Position numbers and translations under genes: made by a program. DNA of 42,927 nt from Escherichia virus mEp460_4F5, in sequence record LR595868.1, one strand, 5' to 3'. Positions 684-37,599 of this stretch are shown here, in pieces; the first letter of the stretch is position 1, and every line of letters starts with the position of its first letter. The notes under the pieces are model-generated. The model saw nothing but the letters and a program-made list of their open reading frames with translations, was not told the origin of the DNA and did no database searches.

Positions 684-2785
684 TGCTGAATCAGGAAACC
701 GCAAAGGCAGCACGAACCGATTCAGGTTATATCCTTCGAGCACCGAGACGAATGCGGGTTGCTGATGCCGTTGCTCAGTATATGCGGGTGCCCATGGGGG
801 CAGGGAACTCAGTCCCGTGGGATCCGCTGGTGGCACCGTATGTTATTGAGCCGATGAACTGCCTGGCCTCGCGTGAATACGACGCAGTGATATTTGTTGG
901 CCCGGCACGAACCGGCAAGACTATCGGCCTGATTGACGGCTGGGTGATTTACAACGTGATTTGCGATCCTGCTGATATGCTGATCATTCAGATGACGGAG
1001 GAAAAAGCCCGCGAACACTCCAAAAAACGACTCGCCAGAACGTTTCGCGTCAGCCCGGAAGTGGTCAGTCGCCTGAGTCCGAACAAAAATGACAACAACG
1101 TTTATGACAGAACATTCCTTGCTGGCAACTACCTGAAAATCGGCTGGCCGTCAGTCAATATCATGTCCTCATCAGATTATAAATGCGTCGCGCTGACGGA
1201 TTATGACCGTTTTCCGGAAGATATTGATGGCGAGGGGGATGCCTTCTCTCTTGCCTCAAAACGTACCACCACATTTATGTCCAGCGGTATGACGCTGGTG
1301 GAGAGTTCCCCCGGCAGGGATGTGAAGGATGTGAAATGGCGACGGACTTCACCGCATGAGGCTCCACCAACCACGGGGATCCTGTCGCTCTATAACCGTG
1401 GTGATCGCCGTCGCTGGTACTGGCCCTGTCCACACTGTGGTGAGTATTTTCAGCCCTGCGGCGATGTGGTTGCTGGTTTCCGTGATATTGCCGATCCCGT
1501 GCTGGCAAGTGAGGCGGCTTATATTCAGTGTCCTTCCTGTTCAGGACGGATTATGCCTGAACAAAAACGTGAGCTGAACGGACGTGGGGTCTGGTTGCGG
1601 GATGGTGAATCCATCAATGCGGATGGCAGTCGTTATGGTGATCCCCGACGCTCACGTATTGCGTCATTCTGGATGGAGGGTCCGGCAGCTGCTTACCAGA
1701 CACTCTCGCAACTCGTTTACAAACTGCTTACTGCAGAACAGGAATACGAGACAACCGGAAGTGAAGAAACACTCAAGACGGTTATCAATACCGACTGGGG
1801 ATTACCTTATCTTCCCCGCGCCAGCATGGAGCAACGAAAAAGTGAACTGCTTGAGCAGCGGGCAGAGCCAGTTCTTTCCCGCAGTGTGCCGGATGGCGTT
1901 AATTTCCTTGTGGCGACAGTGGATGTGCAGGCGGGACGTCATCGCCGTTTTGTGGTTCAGGTAACGGGCTATGGCAGCCGTGGCGAACGCTGGATTATTG
2001 ATCGTTACAACATCACGCAGTCATTGCGCGGTGACAGCGACGGGGAGAGCCAGCGAATTGATCCGGCCAGCTATCCGGAAGACTGGGATGTCCTGCTGAC
2101 GGATGTTTTTCATAAAAGCTGGCCGCTGGCCTCCAATCCTTCTCAACAAATGCGACTGATGGCAATGGCGGTGGACTCCGGCGGTGAAGACGGGGTCACT
2201 GATAATGCCTATAAATTCTGGCGTCGTTGCCGTCGTGATGGCCTTGGTAAACGTATTTACCTGTTTAAGGGCGACAGCATCCGGCGCGCAAAACTGATCA
2301 CCCGTACATTCCCTGATAACACCGGACGAACGGGCCGACGGGCGCAGGCCGCAGGTGATGTGCCGCTCTGGCTTCTTCAGACGGATGCCCTGAAAGACCG
2401 GGTGAATAACGCGTTATGGCGTGACTCGCCAGGTCCCGGCTATGTGCATTTCCCTGACTGGCTGGGGAGCTGGTTTTACGACGAACTGACGTATGAAGAG
2501 CGGAGCAGTGACGGGAAATGGAGTAAGCCGGGGCGCGGTGCCAACGAAGCTTTTGACCTGATGGTGTATGCCGAGGCTCTGGTCATTCTGCATGGATACG
2601 AAAAGATCCGCTGGCCGGATGCACCGGAGTGGGCGAGCCGGGAAACCTGGCTGGAGTGTGTCCCGGACAGTACCGAACCGTCACCCACACCGGAACCTGT
2701 ATCCACGCCTGTTAAAAAACAAAAACGGAAGAAAACAGTAACTGACGATGTTAACCCCTGGCTGACTTCCGGAGGATGGTTATGA
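683..2785 (+). CDS. A: Terminase large subunit (lambda gpA-like)
   Basis: 700-aa ORF; AGGAGG ribosome-binding site at about 673-678; sequence VIFVGPARTGKT (Walker A-like ATPase motif); position and size match lambda A. Confidence 0.9.
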   Translation: MLNQETAKAARTDSGYILRAPRRMRVADAVAQYMRVPMGAGNSVPWDPLVAPYVIEPMNCLASREYDAVIFVGPARTGKTIGLIDGWVIYNVICDPADMLIIQMTEEKAREHSKKRLARTFRVSPEVVSRLSPNKNDNNVYDRTFLAGNYLKIGWPSVNIMSSSDYKCVALTDYDRFPEDIDGEGDAFSLASKRTTTFMSSGMTLVESSPGRDVKDVKWRRTSPHEAPPTTGILSLYNRGDRRRWYWPCPHCGEYFQPCGDVVAGFRDIADPVLASEAAYIQCPSCSGRIMPEQKRELNGRGVWLRDGESINADGSRYGDPRRSRIASFWMEGPAAAYQTLSQLVYKLLTAEQEYETTGSEETLKTVINTDWGLPYLPRASMEQRKSELLEQRAEPVLSRSVPDGVNFLVATVDVQAGRHRRFVVQVTGYGSRGERWIIDRYNITQSLRGDSDGESQRIDPASYPEDWDVLLTDVFHKSWPLASNPSQQMRLMAMAVDSGGEDGVTDNAYKFWRRCRRDGLGKRIYLFKGDSIRRAKLITRTFPDNTGRTGRRAQAAGDVPLWLLQTDALKDRVNNALWRDSPGPGYVHFPDWLGSWFYDELTYEERSSDGKWSKPGRGANEAFDLMVYAEALVILHGYEKIRWPDAPEWASRETWLECVPDSTEPSPTPEPVSTPVKKQKRKKTVTDDVNPWLTSGGWL

Positions 2786-2994
2786 ACCAGAATGATATCG
2801 AAGCCATGATTCAGCGTTATACGGAAGCTGAAATGGCGGTGCTGGACGGAAAATCCGTCACCTTTAATGGTCAGCAGATGACCATGGAAAACTTATCTGA
2901 GATCCGGCAGGGACGGCAGGAGTGGGAGCGCCGCCTTGCGGCTCTGATTACACGACGACGGGGGCATCCCGGGTACCGGCTGGCGAGGTTCTGA
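2782..2994 (+). CDS. W: Head-tail joining protein gpW-like
   Basis: About 70-aa ORF between terminase and portal; start chosen at the ATG at 2782 (GGAGG about 6 nt upstream), which forms an ATGA overlap with the terminase stop; the stop overlaps the portal start. Confidence 0.65.
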   Translation: MNQNDIEAMIQRYTEAEMAVLDGKSVTFNGQQMTMENLSEIRQGRQEWERRLAALITRRRGHPGYRLARF

Positions 2995-4502
2995 TGGCAA
3001 TTCTTGATGATGTGATTGGCGTTTTTTCACCAGGATGGAAAGCGGCAAGGCTGCGTTCCCGTGCGGTGATCCAGGCTTATGAGGCCGTAAAAACGACGCG
3101 GACACACAAAGCCCGGCGGGAAAACCGAACTGCCGACCAGTTAAGCCAGTACGGGGCCGTGTCGTTACGTGAGCAGGCCCGTTACCTTGATAACAACCAC
3201 GATCTGGTTATTGGTGTATTTGACAAGCTGGAAGAACGGGTGGTGGGGAAAAACGGGATTATTGTCGAGCCACATCCGGTATTACGCAATGGGGCCATTG
3301 CCCGTGACCTGGCTGCGGAGATTCGCACCCGATGGAGTGAATGGTCTGTCAGCCCGGAAGTCACCGGGCAGTTTACCCGTCCGATGCTGGAACGTCTGAT
3401 GCTGCGTACCTGGCTGCGCGATGGTGAGGTGTTTGCCCAGATGGTTTCCGGGCGCATAAACAGCCTGACGCCTTCTGCCGGTGTTCATTTCTGGCTGGAG
3501 GCGCTCGAGCCGGACTTTATTCCCATGACCAGTGATGAGAGCAACAGGCTGAATCAGGGCGTGTTTGTTGATGACTGGGGGCGTCCCGAAAAATATCTGG
3601 TGTATAAAAGCCGTCCCGTATCCGGACGGCAGATGGAAACCAAAGAAGTGGATGCAGAGCGAATGCTGCATCTTAAATTTGTTCGCCGTCTGCACCAGAT
3701 GCGCGGGACGTCTTTGTTGTCCGGTGTGCTGATCCGCCTCAGTGCCCTGAAAGAGTATGAAGATTCTGAGCTGACTGCAGCAAGGATCGCCGCTGCTCTG
3801 GGGATGTACATCCGCAAAGGCGACGGGCAGAGCTATGAACCGGATGGTAATGGCAGCAAGGATAAGGAACGCGAGCTTACCATTCAGCCAGGCATTATTT
3901 ACGACGATCTGAAACCCGGCGAAGAAATCGGAATGGTGAAGTCGGATCGTCCCAATCCTAACCTTGAAACTTTTCGTAATGGTCAGTTGCGTGCCGTGGC
4001 GGCGGGCAGTCGTCTGAGTTTTTCCAGTACGGCACGCAACTATAACGGTACTTACAGCGCCCAGCGTCAGGAACTGGTTGAGTCTACTGATGGCTACCTG
4101 ATCCTGCAGGACTGGTTTATTGGTGCCGTCACCCGCCCGATGTATCGTGCCTGGCTGAAACAGGCTGTGGCATCCGGTGTTATCAGGCTACCCCGCGATC
4201 TTGACCGTTCTTCACTGTATACCGCGGTGTATTCCGGACCGGTGATGCCGTGGATTGACCCTGTTAAGGAGGCTGAGGCCTGGAAAATCCAGATTCGTGG
4301 TGGAGCGGCGACAGAATCAGACTGGGTACGTGCAGGTGGTCGTAATCCGGATGATGTCAAACGTCGGCGCAAGGCCGAAATTGATGAAAACCGCAAGCTG
4401 GATCTGGTATTTGATACCGATCCAGCCAGTGATAAAGGAGGCAGCAGTGCCGCAACGAAACGACAGGAGCCGCAGCATACCGACGACCAGTCCGAAGAAT
4501 AA
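2994..4502 (+). CDS. B: Portal protein (lambda B family)
   Basis: About 500-aa ORF following W with an ATGA overlap; the ORF track extends it upstream from 2922, but the in-frame ATG at 2994 coincides with the W stop. Confidence 0.8.
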   Translation: MAILDDVIGVFSPGWKAARLRSRAVIQAYEAVKTTRTHKARRENRTADQLSQYGAVSLREQARYLDNNHDLVIGVFDKLEERVVGKNGIIVEPHPVLRNGAIARDLAAEIRTRWSEWSVSPEVTGQFTRPMLERLMLRTWLRDGEVFAQMVSGRINSLTPSAGVHFWLEALEPDFIPMTSDESNRLNQGVFVDDWGRPEKYLVYKSRPVSGRQMETKEVDAERMLHLKFVRRLHQMRGTSLLSGVLIRLSALKEYEDSELTAARIAAALGMYIRKGDGQSYEPDGNGSKDKERELTIQPGIIYDDLKPGEEIGMVKSDRPNPNLETFRNGQLRAVAAGSRLSFSSTARNYNGTYSAQRQELVESTDGYLILQDWFIGAVTRPMYRAWLKQAVASGVIRLPRDLDRSSLYTAVYSGPVMPWIDPVKEAEAWKIQIRGGAATESDWVRAGGRNPDDVKRRRKAEIDENRKLDLVFDTDPASDKGGSSAATKRQEPQHTDDQSEE

Positions 4503-21735: not shown

Positions 21736-22833
21736 TCAAGAGGTCTTATTTCTGCTCTTTTGGAGCTCTTCAAAACGATTATGTAAAGATTTCGGATACA
21801 GTTCGGTATATACCTGCCATAGCACGTTTAATGAACGATGCCCTGTAACTTGGGCGACTTCCTCAATACTAAAGCCAGCCTCAAATAAGCGACTTGCCCC
21901 TTCTCTACGCAAATCATGGTATCGCAGATCTTTAATACCTAATTTGCTTCTTACTCTCTGAAATCCCGCAGTAACAGAAGTGCTGTTATATGGAAAAATG
22001 AATTCCGATTTTTTGGGCTGTCGTTGGACGATATCCCAGGCTTCCCCAAGCAAGGCTACTTTCATGTGGTTGCCTTCCTTTTTGCGTGGATCTTTCCTGT
22101 CTCTTACGAGTATAGATTTTTGTTCTTGGTCGAGATCTTCCCATCGTAACCGGCATACTTCTCCGATTCGCATACAGGACCACACAGAAAATTTGAGGAT
22201 ATCAACGAACGGAATTTTTGAGCATTTATGAGTAGATCGTTGTTGAAGGCCTTCAATGAGCATGTCCAGTTCATCAGATGCTGGTCTACGATTACGACGG
22301 TTTGATTTACCAATCAAACCAAGTTTAAGTAGATATGGACGAGCGCTTTTCGCCGGGTTTGATGTGTAATTAATTCCGTATACAGGTTTGGCCGCATCCA
22401 GAACACTGCCAAGATAACTAACATCGTGGCTGACTGTTGCTGGACCTGCACCAGCGTTGTTTCTTAGCCTACAATGTTCAATTACGTCATTTTCTGTCAG
22501 TTCGGATAGTTTGATCGCGGAGATGTCACTATCCATAAGCAGTTCCAGCACATATCTTTTAGTACGACCTGCTTTACCTCCGGCATTTGGGTCATTTAAA
22601 TATTTGTGTAGTAAGTCACGGACTGTAAGTCCGTCAACTGCATTTGATGATGGAATGCCATATAGATCTAATTCCATCACTTTCTGTGTACCCCATGTTT
22701 TGGCATGGGCATGTTTAGGGAATGTTTTGCTTTCCCTGTAAGTGATAACACCTTTTTCTTTGATAATCACATTACAGCGATAGCGTGGTGTGCCATCGGA
22801 TTTTAGTCGTTTCTCTATGTTATAGTACGCCAT
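21736..22833 (-). CDS. int: Tyrosine integrase
   Basis: 365 aa; C-terminal catalytic region with the R ... H..R ... Y pattern (LRYHDLRREGASRLFEAG ... GHRS ... YTELY); GAGG ribosome-binding site about 8 nt upstream. Confidence 0.9.
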   Translation of the reverse strand: MAYYNIEKRLKSDGTPRYRCNVIIKEKGVITYRESKTFPKHAHAKTWGTQKVMELDLYGIPSSNAVDGLTVRDLLHKYLNDPNAGGKAGRTKRYVLELLMDSDISAIKLSELTENDVIEHCRLRNNAGAGPATVSHDVSYLGSVLDAAKPVYGINYTSNPAKSARPYLLKLGLIGKSNRRNRRPASDELDMLIEGLQQRSTHKCSKIPFVDILKFSVWSCMRIGEVCRLRWEDLDQEQKSILVRDRKDPRKKEGNHMKVALLGEAWDIVQRQPKKSEFIFPYNSTSVTAGFQRVRSKLGIKDLRYHDLRREGASRLFEAGFSIEEVAQVTGHRSLNVLWQVYTELYPKSLHNRFEELQKSRNKTS

Positions 22834-24122: not shown

Positions 24123-24404
24123 TTAGTGATGTTCTTTGTCCTTCTGTTTGACTGTTCTGACCTGTTCCCACTCGATACGTCCTTCTTCTCGCCTTTTGTC
24201 TATGTATTCCGCAAGATCTTGAATATTGATGCAACGTTTTGCTTTTTGTGATGTGCCGATGCGATATGTTGGAACGGGCAACTTACAAGCGTTTGCTTTT
24301 GCTTCTGCCGTGGCTGGACTCATACCAAAGTACTTTTGGCTAACTGCTGAGAGTTCAATGTTTGGGGTATTGAATTCAGCCATCAGTAAAAACAAGGTGT
24401 TCAT
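24123..24404 (-). CDS. PrtN-family winged-helix DNA-binding protein (candidate excisionase / recombination directionality factor)
   Basis: 93 aa from the ATG at 24404 (GGAG about 7 nt upstream); resembles PrtN/excisionase-like proteins (MNT.FLLMAEF ... KYFG ... LPVP.YR.G); last gene of the minus-strand early operon, near int. Confidence 0.55.
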   Translation of the reverse strand: MNTLFLLMAEFNTPNIELSAVSQKYFGMSPATAEAKANACKLPVPTYRIGTSQKAKRCINIQDLAEYIDKRREEGRIEWEQVRTVKQKDKEHH

Positions 24405-24440
24405 AATTTTCTCCATCAAAACCGGCTGCACCCGGGAAAA

Positions 24441-29267: not shown

Positions 29268-29332
29268 AATAAGTCCTCACTATATAAAGATATTCAATGA
29301 TGAGATAAATAATCAGTTAATTAAGAACGATA

Positions 29333-29695
29333 TTAATGACCTGCTGCGCGGAGTTTTCCGTCAGGCTCACCGGCAAGAGTCAGTAATTGTCCCTGGTCTT
29401 CCTGCAGAATAGTCAGGCGACCACCGCGATTGACATACATCGGCGTTTCGGTGGTGTCTTCTTCAGAAATTTTCCCGCGGTTAGTCGGGCGAACATATGA
29501 GAGTTTGTGTTTGATTTTCACACGGTTCTCATCAAACGGTTCGATTTCCAGGTTGAGCGAGACCTTACCTTTGGTTTTCGTGTTCATCACACCGGAAGCG
29601 ACTTCACTGAGAACTGCGCCGATTTTGGTTTCAAATACGCCGCCGTCCAGCTCCCCGATAAATGCCTGCACATCAGTACTGCGTTCGCTAGCCAT
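29333..29695 (-). CDS. YfdP-like protein
   Basis: 120 aa from the ATG at 29695 (GAGGAG about 9 nt upstream); the track ORF extends to 29881, but that extension is GC-rich, structured and non-protein-like. Confidence 0.55.
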   Translation of the reverse strand: MASERSTDVQAFIGELDGGVFETKIGAVLSEVASGVMNTKTKGKVSLNLEIEPFDENRVKIKHKLSYVRPTNRGKISEEDTTETPMYVNRGGRLTILQEDQGQLLTLAGEPDGKLRAAGH

Positions 29696-30098
29696 TTTGC
29701 TGCTCCTCATCATATCGACCCTGCAAGGTCGGTTGGTTTCTCCACAAAACAGAGAAGAACACCTGCGGTGGCAGCCGCCCGGATGGATTGGGTTATGAGC
29801 CCGTCGTCCGGTGATGCTCTTCTCTGTTTTGTAAAAAGAGCGGTACCAGCCGGAAGCAAGTGTACAAACTGGTACCGCCAAAGCAGTGGCTGTTGTGGTG
29901 CCGGGTGCCTCCCGGTGCCTGGCGAAGGTTGCACACCAGGCGGGTGGGTATCCACAGAAGGTCGACTGTCAGTCTCAACCTTAACCCGCGTGCGCTGAGC
30001 CGCATTCACCACAACGCTAAGGATTCTCTCTGGTTGAAAATACTTAGCTGTTATGTGCCTGCTTTTAGCCACATCAGGCGAGGTGGTAGGTACGTGAG
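29696..30098 (-). other. Structured non-coding region within the early-left operon (candidate RNA element)
   Basis: About 400 nt without a convincing ORF; 15-bp perfect inverted repeat ACAAAACAGAGAAGA (about 29744-29758) with TCTTCTCTGTTTTGT (about 29818-29832); 10-bp stem GCGGTACCAG (29840-29849) with CTGGTACCGC (29869-29878); several further GC-rich hairpins to about 29960. Confidence 0.45.
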
Positions 30099-30473
30099 CT
30101 ACTTGGTGGTATTTGCCTTCGATGAGGCAAGATAGGCATCAAGATCACTTTTTAGGTAAATAACCTTTCTACCGATTTTTAAAAAAGGTATTCGAACTTT
30201 TCCTGTGCTAGCCCAATTAGCTAAGGTTTGCGCTTCTACGCCGATATAGGCTGCGGCGTCTTCTCTATTCATTTTTTCATGTTGTTCTGACAGAATACTC
30301 GTTGCTTCAAAATCAAAGCCCAGCCTTTCAAAGGCATAGATAATAGAGCCCAAAGCCATTTGTTTAACTGTTCTGTAGTTACTGCTTTCAACTTGGCTTA
30401 ATGCAGTTTTTGCTGCTTCAATCACCACAAGCCAGGCATCTCGTTGGTTGTCGATACTGCCATCCATATTCAC
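30099..30473 (-). CDS. DNA-binding protein with C-terminal AlpA/excisionase-type helix-turn-helix; first gene of the pL operon (not N-like)
   Basis: 124 aa; C-terminal AYIGVEAQTLANWASTGKVRIPFLKIGRKVIYLKSDLDAYL resembles MerR/AlpA-type HTH; no Arg-rich N-like motif. Confidence 0.5.
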   Translation of the reverse strand: MNMDGSIDNQRDAWLVVIEAAKTALSQVESSNYRTVKQMALGSIIYAFERLGFDFEATSILSEQHEKMNREDAAAYIGVEAQTLANWASTGKVRIPFLKIGRKVIYLKSDLDAYLASSKANTTK

Positions 30474-30644
30474 TCTCCTGCCATGTGCGAATCATCCGGT
30501 CATTCATACGCCACCGTCGGCTACTTCGTGGGCGTCCTGCCTGTTCGTTATCTTTGATATAAAATCTAACTTAACTTAGTTTTGATGGCAAGAGAAAACA
30601 CCAAACTTTTCTTAGTTCGGTGTTTTGGTTAGAGAAAAGGGGGG
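30474..30644 (-). promoter_or_regulatory. pL / OL region
   Basis: On the minus strand: -35 TTGCCA (plus coordinates about 30586-30591), 17-nt spacer, -10 TAGATT (about 30563-30568); operator-like ACTAAGT / CTTAGTT half-sites (for example AACTTAACTTAGTTTT and CTTAGTTCGG) overlap the promoter. Confidence 0.55.
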
Positions 30645-31271
30645 CTAGAGTTCGTATTGAACTCCTTTGACTACACCAATGATGAGGCAATTACCATTGA
30701 TCGGGATGTTGGGGTACCGGGGATTTAATGGCACTAAAAACTTTTGAGGGCCATCGATAACTAATTTTTTTACTGTGGCTTCGTTTGTTCCATCAAGTCT
30801 AGCGATGACTATTTTTCCATGCCGGGGTTCTGCATCAGGATCTACAATCACTGTTGCGCCTTCTGGTATTGTTGGGAGGCCGTTAGGGTTAGTCATGGAG
30901 TCGCCTTTAACCTCCAATGCAAATGAGTTATCACCAATCTTTAATGATGTATCTACCCACTTGTCTACTTCACTAAACACTTCTGCTGTCCTGCACTCAG
31001 TAAACTGCCCAGCCTGAACCCACGAGATTACAGGAACTCTGCGCATGTTTGTGACGAGTTTGCCTTCAAACTCCGCACCATAAAGAATGTAATCTATTGA
31101 CGTATTGAAGAACTTCGCTAATTTTGAAAGTGCTTCCCCACCAGGGACATTGATGTCTTTCTCCCAGTACCCCACAGCAACGTCACTTACTCCACAAAAT
31201 TTACCCAATTCTTTCTGGGACGTTCTGGTAACTCTTCTCAGAGCTTTTATACGCTGACCAACCGTTTCCAT
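30645..31271 (-). CDS. cI: CI-type repressor (HTH_XRE plus S24 LexA-like peptidase domain)
   Basis: 208 aa; N-terminal XRE-type HTH (GQRIKALR ... SQKELGKFCGVSDVAVGYWE); C-terminal S24 motifs (Ala-Gly cleavage site in WVQAGQF, GDSM serine, KIVIARL lysine); divergent from cro. Confidence 0.85.
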   Translation of the reverse strand: METVGQRIKALRRVTRTSQKELGKFCGVSDVAVGYWEKDINVPGGEALSKLAKFFNTSIDYILYGAEFEGKLVTNMRRVPVISWVQAGQFTECRTAEVFSEVDKWVDTSLKIGDNSFALEVKGDSMTNPNGLPTIPEGATVIVDPDAEPRHGKIVIARLDGTNEATVKKLVIDGPQKFLVPLNPRYPNIPINGNCLIIGVVKGVQYEL

Positions 31272-37240: not shown

Positions 37241-37257
37241 TTTTGTGGAGAAAGTTG

Positions 37258-37599
37258 ATGCGTGATATGTATGAAGTATTGGACCGCTGGGGTGCATGGG
37301 CTGCAGCAGATAACAGTGGTGTGGACTGGCAGCCTGTTGCTGCAGGGTTTAAAGGTTTACTACCTCATGGAAAGAAAACACGCCAACAATGCGATGATGA
37401 TGAAGGAATCATGATTGACAGCTGTGTTGCGCGATTGCGGAAATATAAGCCCGAAGAGTATGAGTTGGTTATTGCTCATTTTGTTATCGGCATCTCACTA
37501 AGAACTATTGCAAAGAAGCAGAAGTGTTCTGATGGGACAATAAGAAAAGAGTTGCAAACAGCTCTTGGTTTTCTGGATGGTGTGCTTTCAATGTTGTAA
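37258..37599 (+). CDS. Q: Late-gene antiterminator Q (QuuD / Q82-like family)
   Basis: 113 aa from the ATG at 37258 (GGAG 7 nt upstream); closely resembles E. coli QuuD as recalled (MRD ... VL.RWGAWAA ... W...AAGFKGL ... DDD ... SDG.I.K.LQ). Confidence 0.8.
   Translation: MRDMYEVLDRWGAWAAADNSGVDWQPVAAGFKGLLPHGKKTRQQCDDDEGIMIDSCVARLRKYKPEEYELVIAHFVIGISLRTIAKKQKCSDGTIRKELQTALGFLDGVLSML

Follow-up and report, generated by a model that had tools for sequence, protein, structure and literature searches.

Known phage RNAs and the early-left gap

The closest described systems are the STnc100 and PasD RNAs. STnc100 is an sRNA encoded by prophages of Salmonella and E. coli. Eleven copies of STnc100 are expressed in EDL933, one of them verified by northern blot (PMC5331693), and in some Stx phages STnc100 lies 75 nt downstream of stx2 (PMC12370729). 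PasD1 and PasD2 are northern-verified, Hfq-dependent sRNAs with many RIL-seq partners (PMC8550237), and a 2026 preprint that links STnc100 and PasD by structure gives them a common ancestry (bioRxiv 10.64898/2026.05.13.724894). Several other phage elements offer further points of comparison. In HK022, a lambdoid phage without N, put is a structured RNA early in the pL transcript and upstream of terminators; it consists of two simple stem-loops of ~70 nt and is present in both the pL and pR operons. Phage lambda has an intrinsic terminator, tL1, after its first pL function, and in the RNase III hairpin of its N leader a long, imperfect duplex lies shortly before a ribosome-binding site. The C4, isrK and P4 CI antisense RNAs (CL00128) are operon-processed small phage RNAs with a CCGGG...CCCGG-type hairpin beside the terminal helix.

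Here we compare these systems with a 403-nt gap (29696-30098) inside the early-left (pL) operon of a lambdoid prophage. The DNA analysed as a whole, referred to below as the window, is the 42,927 nucleotides of Escherichia virus mEp460_4F5 (LR595868.1). As the gap lies within the early-left operon, the minus strand is the relevant one, and a pL-like promoter is presumed to be the source of the transcript that carries the element. The features of the region are as follows, in window positions.

37243-37599: Q antiterminator gene (PF06530)
30645-31271, minus: cI-like repressor gene (Peptidase_S24 and HTH_3 domains)
30563-30591, minus: pL-like sigma-70 promoter TTGCCA-17-TAGATT (promoter scan), downstream of the cI-like repressor gene
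30099-30272, minus: first pL gene, a small HTH_17 (excisionase/AlpA-like) DNA-binding protein (Pfam domain, RefSeq call)
30049-30088, minus: 40-nt boundary motif TACCACCTCGCCTGATGTGGCTAAAAGCAGGCACATAACA, which forms a hairpin GCCUG...CAGGC
29892-30015, minus: STnc100-like pseudoknotted core of 124 nt (Rfam match, helix parsing, covariation, fold)
29833-29879, minus: intrinsic terminator, a 13-bp stem with a perfect 10-bp core, then UCUUUUU
29744-29832, minus: module A, a ~23-bp stem carrying a three-way junction (inverted repeat, z = -7.8, RNAalifold)
29790-29803, minus: apical hairpin of module A, CGGGCUCAUAACCC, with three G-C pairs and loop CUCAUAA, identical to the tRNA-fMet anticodon arm
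29695-29731, minus: small hairpin (29716-29731), Shine-Dalgarno GAGGAG (29703-29708) and ATG of yfdP (29695)
29333-29695, minus: yfdP, first gene after the gap
24123-24431, minus: PrtN/Xis-like gene
21736-22833, minus: integrase gene

The pL operon is 8.8 kb long. On the minus strand yfdP is followed by yfdQ (DUF2303), a yfdR-like gene, more small genes and, at the end of the operon some 7-8 kb past the terminator, the PrtN/Xis-like and integrase genes; Cro-like and CII-like genes face rightward. An earlier reading of this DNA, made from the sequence only, had noted a Q gene but no recognisable N. Both points hold, as the Q antiterminator matches PF06530 and the first pL gene of the window encodes an HTH_17 protein; no N-like protein was found in the window or its relatives, and an arginine-rich motif is absent from the first pL genes of the relatives. 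The open frame of the first pL gene extends mechanically to a GTG at 30473 (124 aa, 30099-30473), of which RefSeq calls the C-terminal 57 aa only; the 200 nt upstream of the RefSeq start may be leader instead of coding sequence. The promoter scan detects no promoter for the core or for yfdP in 29300-30560.

The boundary motif next to the first pL gene recurs at 90-97% identity in many lambdoid phages from Escherichia, Klebsiella, Hafnia and Salmonella that are not otherwise related, and in the minimum-free-energy fold it partly pairs with the trailer 3' of the core. It probably marks a boundary between mosaic segments, as it is often found beside morons on the opposite strand, for example sieB.

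A structured RNA with an STnc100-like core

The gap holds a structured non-coding RNA on the pL strand, a conclusion that is well supported. Its inverted repeats are those described from the letters alone: the 15-bp perfect repeat with arms about 60 nt apart is ACAAAACAGAGAAGA / TCTTCTCTGTTTTGT (29744-29758 and 29818-29832, with 59 nt between), part of a longer repeat whose 25-nt arms (29744-29768 / 29808-29832) are 84% complementary. The 10-bp perfect stem (29840-29849 / 29869-29878) does enclose a 19-nt loop, and the further GC-rich hairpins include P4 (29917-29941) and P5 (29901-29915) of the core. GC content is 0.54-0.59 over 29700-30099 versus 0.37-0.49 in the flanks. Folding of the minus-strand transcript, which the earlier reading had proposed as a check, gives -171.5 kcal/mol for the 403-nt RNA versus -130.2 ± 5.7 kcal/mol in dinucleotide shuffles (z = -7.3, with none of 100 shuffles as good), and the single modules are also stable on this strand (z = -7.8 for module A; z = -4.1 for the terminator stem, at -21.2 kcal/mol). 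The plus strand folds well too (z = -5.6), as expected for inverted repeats, which is why the strand was decided by the U-tract, the Rfam hit and the G-U pairs.

At gathering thresholds Rfam has no match in the whole window, and a permissive covariance scan yields one clear match, to STnc100 (RF02076), at 29831-30033 on the minus strand. The alignment covers the full length of the model (positions 1-206 of 206) with a score of 36.3 bits, below the gathering score of 47, and an E-value of 4.5e-6 on 1 kb or 1.9e-4 on the whole window. The full-length plan of RF02076 is present, with the closing helix, the GGUGAAU junction, P2, P4, the CCGGGAGGCACCCGG hairpin and the 3' terminator, and the terminator portion of the model aligns to 29833-29879. 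The core itself comprises the following helices.

30007-30015 / 29892-29900, minus: P1 closing helix, GUUGUGGUG paired with CACCACAAC
29988-30003, minus: P2 hairpin with a UCAGCG loop
29976-29982 / 29925-29931, minus: pseudoknot, AAGGUUG paired with CAACCUU in the P4 loop
29964-29974 and 29944-29955, minus: variable hairpins
29917-29941, minus: P4
29901-29915, minus: invariant P5 hairpin CCGGGAGGCACCCGG

The core shares with STnc100 its helix order, the GGUGAAU 5' junction, the ACCGGGAGGCACCCGGCACC hairpin, the closing helix, a terminator hairpin and a prophage location. It differs in scoring 36.3 bits against a threshold of 47, in a rebuilt P2 (GCG/CGC versus CCCC/GGGG), in lacking its own promoter and lying in a repressed pL operon rather than the late region, and in its pseudoknot, which is absent from the Rfam STnc100 structure line. 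PasD1 and PasD2 of EPEC likewise belong to lambdoid prophages and have a terminator with a U-tail, a likeness that runs through their published kinship with STnc100; unlike the window element, they lie near Q, lpxR and esterase genes and are expressed in lysogens. The C4, isrK and P4 CI RNAs resemble the core in their hairpin beside the terminal helix, but the core has no Rfam match to them and differs in size and fold. Together these comparisons leave the core as a divergent, operon-embedded STnc100/PasD-type element with its own terminator, which we consider well supported. Among the options raised in the earlier reading it is thus the small RNA that fits best, as a divergent relative of STnc100/PasD.

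The window has no second STnc100-like copy, in the pR operon or elsewhere, and no Rfam match to an isrK/C4-type RNA; an RNA of that type lies beside a Rha/antirepressor gene in mEp460 (L002 5221-5259) and ST64B (L007 5043-5119). ARAGORN and the Rfam tRNA model find no tRNA or tmRNA gene in the window. A tRNA or tmRNA was rejected as a candidate for the element, since neither program finds a cloverleaf and the part in common with a tRNA is a 14-nt anticodon arm only.

The core belongs to a family with a common architecture. An IMG/VR scan for the invariant 21-mer CACCGGGAGGCACCCGGCACC returned at least 120 loci, with 99 distinct cores among the matches listed, and all of the cores listed follow one plan. 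P1, round GGUG...CACC, leads through AAU to P2 with its UNNGCG loop; next is the strand that forms an H-type pseudoknot with the P4 hairpin loop, then one or two variable hairpins, P4, one unpaired A, and the invariant P5 (CCGGG-AGGCA-CCCGG) abutting the 3' strand of P1. Covariation was analysed in 39 non-redundant members, the window included, drawn from the matches listed. In a plain MAFFT alignment (A1) P4 and the variable region were misaligned and RNAalifold recovered P1, P2 and P5 only; we therefore used helices parsed from anchors and an N-padded alignment (A2), which was fitted to structure for P4 and the pseudoknot and in which P1 was placed independently, by sequence anchors alone. 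Across the 39 members 91.7% of cells are paired, versus 66.7% after shuffling (none of 500 shuffles reaches the observed value) and 35-41% with slid partners, the pairing percentages of P4 and the pseudoknot being inflated because their registers were chosen by best complementarity. Both sides have changed in 5 of 9 pairs of P1, 9 of 9 of the pseudoknot and 9 of 11 of P4. In P1, for instance, 19 members have GC and 15 have AU at columns 7-83, and at columns 6-84 the pair is UA in 14 members and CG in 13; shuffling the loop cuts the longest pseudoknot run from 6.5 to 4.5 nt. The paired segments of the core, and those of module A described below, are conserved with compensatory changes across related phages, a conservation whose absence the sequence-only reading had named as a refutation.

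Of 5,426 complete E. coli genomes, 2,781 have a match to the region and 1,823 of those hold at least 80% of it, and in scans of genome contigs a strict pattern for the subfamily matches only in Escherichia, Shigella and Enterobacter. Sub-threshold RF02076 matches lie at the same place in SfV (39.5 bits), phiES15 (40.6 bits) and ST64B (35.1 bits, core only), and a further one, of 33.4 bits, lies in the ban operon of P1 between tRNA-Thr and tciA. This P1 core (L006 1410-1529) shares its strand with the ban operon and is antisense to upl, an annotated ORF; it is found alongside tRNAs and a dicF-like RNA. Among the matches listed, elements with a GAAUGCGG-type P2, the type of the window, always fall below the Rfam threshold, at 29-41 bits; the bona fide STnc100 copies of one IMG/VR contig, L021, score 77-132 bits. 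That contig has a tandem array of four different copies, all on the same strand and within 1.1 kb (2265-3380), beside two tRNA genes. Their scaffold is conserved, with internal hairpins that vary from copy to copy; a canonical GC-rich hairpin and U-tract close the last two, and sigma-70-like hexamers, read by eye, lie upstream of at least two.

The pL-type elements lie near the start of left operons under repressor control. One small gene precedes the core in the window, SfV, e14 and phiES15, and in ST64B, mEp460 and three further contigs (L023, L064 and L075) it comes directly after the promoter leader with no gene between. The core of mEp460 (L002 2740-2880, minus) is more divergent, with CCGG-AGAUCAGCA-CCGG as its P5, and is not detected by Rfam.

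Terminator, module A and the fate of pL transcripts

The stem and U-tract at 29833-29879 have the anatomy of an intrinsic terminator and, like lambda tL1, to which they have no likeness in sequence, come after the first pL function. They are predicted to form the 3' end of a small RNA and to act as an attenuator for yfdP and the genes downstream. A boxA-like string, CGCUCUUUU (29834-29842), is the 3' arm of this terminator and varies in homologues. A nut site (boxA-boxB) was accordingly rejected, as this is the sole boxA-like string and it is not conserved.

Beyond the terminator lies module A, a conserved RNA motif not previously described that includes an exact initiator-tRNA anticodon arm. 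No Rfam family matches it. A search of IMG/VR with a degenerate pattern places module A in many enterobacterial phage contigs, and among the matches listed it always has a terminator before it and GUGGAGAAAC and the first ORF after it, that ORF varying between contigs. For 18 diverse copies RNAalifold yields a structure of 30 pairs, of which 10 show compensatory changes; columns 23-121, for instance, are GC in 10 copies and CG in 8. Some of the contigs listed (L028, L152, L172 and L216) have module A directly before a core, with a GUUGUG strand in common with P1, and the GUGGAGAAAC that follows module A in the window looks like a remnant of such a junction. Module A resembles the lambda N-leader hairpin in being a long, imperfect duplex placed shortly before a ribosome-binding site, but the two have no sequence relationship, and module A, a candidate substrate of RNase III, has a three-way junction and the tRNA-fMet look-alike.

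The apical hairpin CGGGCUCAUAACCC matches the anticodon arm of the E. coli initiator tRNA-fMet, GGG/CCC stem included, at all 14 nt; the tRNA sequence used was confirmed as a four-copy tRNA-Met gene in all 5,426 genomes. This arm is the longest tRNA-fMet match within the whole window, and a match of at least 14 nt arises in 4 of 200 shuffles of the 43-kb window. Taken alone the identity is suggestive, and the conservation of the hairpin and its matching partition into stem and loop give the likeness more weight. The look-alike may serve translation control or act as a decoy for enzymes that recognise the arm, among them VapC/MvpT, which cuts tRNA-fMet in its anticodon loop.

In the reading that we favour, with a probability of roughly 0.55, most pL transcription would end at 29833 to give a processed trans-acting RNA, the terminator would act as an attenuator and module A as the leader of read-through transcripts. 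On loss of the repressor, pL transcripts would cross the small HTH gene and the core, and a large fraction would stop at the terminator, releasing a structured RNA of ~150-250 nt whose 5' end would be made by processing, as the core has no promoter of its own. This RNA would act in trans in the manner of STnc100 and PasD, probably with Hfq. The same terminator would attenuate the flow into yfdP-yfdQ-yfdR and on to xis/int, and transcripts that read through would bear module A as the 5' leader of yfdP, its long duplex being a likely site for RNase III or translation control. We infer the accumulation of the RNA, its binding to Hfq, its action in trans and the role of module A, and we regard the trans-acting step as the weakest part of the scheme. 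Besides the score below the gathering threshold, the context of the pL-type elements tells against it: among the matches listed, a search for sigma-70-like promoters (at least 9 of 12 matches) shortly before the element finds one in none of the 22 distinct pL-type contexts, and 17 of these have a terminator within 130 nt while the other 5 lack one nearby, so that production of a discrete RNA is not guaranteed. Of the late-type contexts listed, 20 of 87 have such a promoter. The fold, moreover, is far more elaborate and invariant in sequence (P5, the P2 loop, GGUGAAU) than is typical of an sRNA built from a seed and a terminator, which suggests a bound protein or RNA polymerase.

That last feature, with the pseudoknot, also fits a core that works in cis, either by modifying RNA polymerase in the manner of put or EAR or by sensing a factor or ligand as a riboswitch does, and so brings about read-through of 29833-29879 and later terminators in place of N. 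The core does directly precede a strong terminator, within the 8.8-kb operon whose last genes are xis-like and int, and no promoter is detected from the terminator to yfdP; as the phages concerned have no N, a cis role in read-through has to be entertained. The core is also the first element after the operator-controlled promoter in mEp460, ST64B and the three contigs named above. Among the matches listed, 34 of 35 pL-type elements point the same way as the next ORF, which is also compatible with a cis role, and over all context types the core is co-oriented with the downstream genes in 86 of 98. We nevertheless think such a mechanism, the main rival to our reading, unlikely. The window element resembles put in being a structured RNA that a lambdoid phage lacking N transcribes early from pL, ahead of terminators, but the analogy with put drawn in the earlier reading fails as homology: the window element is a 124-nt multi-helix pseudoknot present once, in pL only, and the put sequence (GGUUCAGGAUGAAC / GGUCAAGGAUGACU, from HK022 putL/putR) has no match at three or fewer mismatches in or near the region. 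Homology to put was rejected after this comparison with both putL and putR, with which the element has neither sequence nor architecture in common. The canonical relatives speak against cis action as well. They are independent units, up to four in tandem with their own terminators (seen for the last two L021 copies), they occur also in phages with N and Q, and they accumulate as discrete, Hfq-dependent RNAs in uninduced lysogens, the opposite of what self-antitermination predicts. Nor is there an evident alternative pairing that would break the terminator.

A protein might instead take the place of N. Pseudomonas AlpA is a Q-like antiterminator, and the AlpA-like HTH protein of the first pL gene may be one too, although the relatives have different first genes or none. 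More far-reaching, and to us rather doubtful, is the proposal that the STnc100-type pseudoknot represents a novel type of cis-acting RNA to which RNA polymerase or a factor would bind and that would switch pL transcription between a stop, with release of the sRNA, and continuation into the recombination and excision genes in N-less phages (SfV, ST64B, mEp460 and the window), the tRNA-fMet look-alike being a second regulatory or decoy device. If true, a single element would serve both as an sRNA gene and as a switch of the put/EAR or riboswitch kind.

The region also has a history of recombination. In mEp460, cdtI and Stx2 phages the terminator, module A and yfdP are 98-99% identical to the window, with the divergent, Rfam-negative core variant described above for mEp460 upstream, and the homology breaks inside P5 and the 3' strand of P1, at 29900-29908. 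As these breaks fall at conserved core segments (in mEp460, homology runs from the P1 3' strand), such segments act as recombination joints, and only in this weak sense the recombination site suggested from the sequence survives, invariant core segments coinciding with mosaic breakpoints. The same breaks, and the widespread mosaic boundary at 30049-30088, could be taken to mean that the inverted repeats are a DNA-level recombination or protein-binding site whose RNA-like features are incidental. We find this highly improbable: P1, P4, the pseudoknot and module A all stay paired through compensatory changes, the G-U pairs are confined to the minus strand, the transcribed strand has a U-tract after the stem, and the breakpoints are better explained by homologous recombination between conserved RNA-gene segments.

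Open frames in the gap and the meaning of the element

The open frames of the gap are a 120-aa minus-strand ORF (29710-30072) and two plus-strand ORFs, none of which has a Pfam match. The sequence-only reading judged that there was no credible ORF here, and its view is borne out by the alignment of the window with SfV, e14, A24 and ST64B, in which no protein-coding frame is conserved. Indels of 1, 8-9 and 20 nt separate these sequences, the long ORF shifts frame between close relatives, and the frame reading VVVNAAQRTR (the ymfH frame) contains stop codons in ST64B. Annotation of the homologous DNA is correspondingly uneven: it is a CDS, ymfH (a 103-aa ORF), in the e14 element of K-12, a 'frameshifted' hypothetical protein in strain A24, and blank in a genome that is 100% identical to the region. 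PHROG families do match translations from the gap, which stems solely from ORFs that automatic annotation had earlier called in this conserved DNA. That the gap encodes a small protein, either the YmfH-like 120-aa ORF or a plus-strand one, is scarcely credible despite the ORFs of 120 aa here and 103 aa in e14 and the existence of PHROG families, as non-triplet indels and stops break the frame, PGAP calls it frameshifted or leaves it unannotated even in the identical genome, and the ORF passes directly through the RNA helices and the terminator.

The ymfH of e14 (L003 2502-2813) is itself a degenerate copy of the RNA cassette that shows a 1-nt deletion and a G>A substitution in the invariant P5 hairpin. 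A clone over-expressing ymfH is reported to trigger RcaT, the toxin of retron-Sen2 (bioRxiv 10.1101/2020.06.22.160242), which could be an effect of the RNA instead of the protein. Searches of the literature on ymfH, yfdP, ST64B sRNAs and initiator-tRNA mimics turned up nothing specific to the gap element.

The STnc100/PasD family was already known; what is new is a pL-operon subfamily that is missed by Rfam and goes by the name ymfH in K-12, together with the covariation-supported pseudoknot and module A with its tRNA-fMet look-alike. Recognition of the element as an RNA corrects the annotation of this DNA, K-12 e14 included, where it has been left blank or called a frameshifted pseudogene or YmfH, and extends the STnc100/PasD family into early operons and into P1. 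The fold, with its covariation-supported pseudoknot, points to a specific binding partner. For early-left expression past intrinsic terminators in phages that lack N, the gap element is the obvious candidate.
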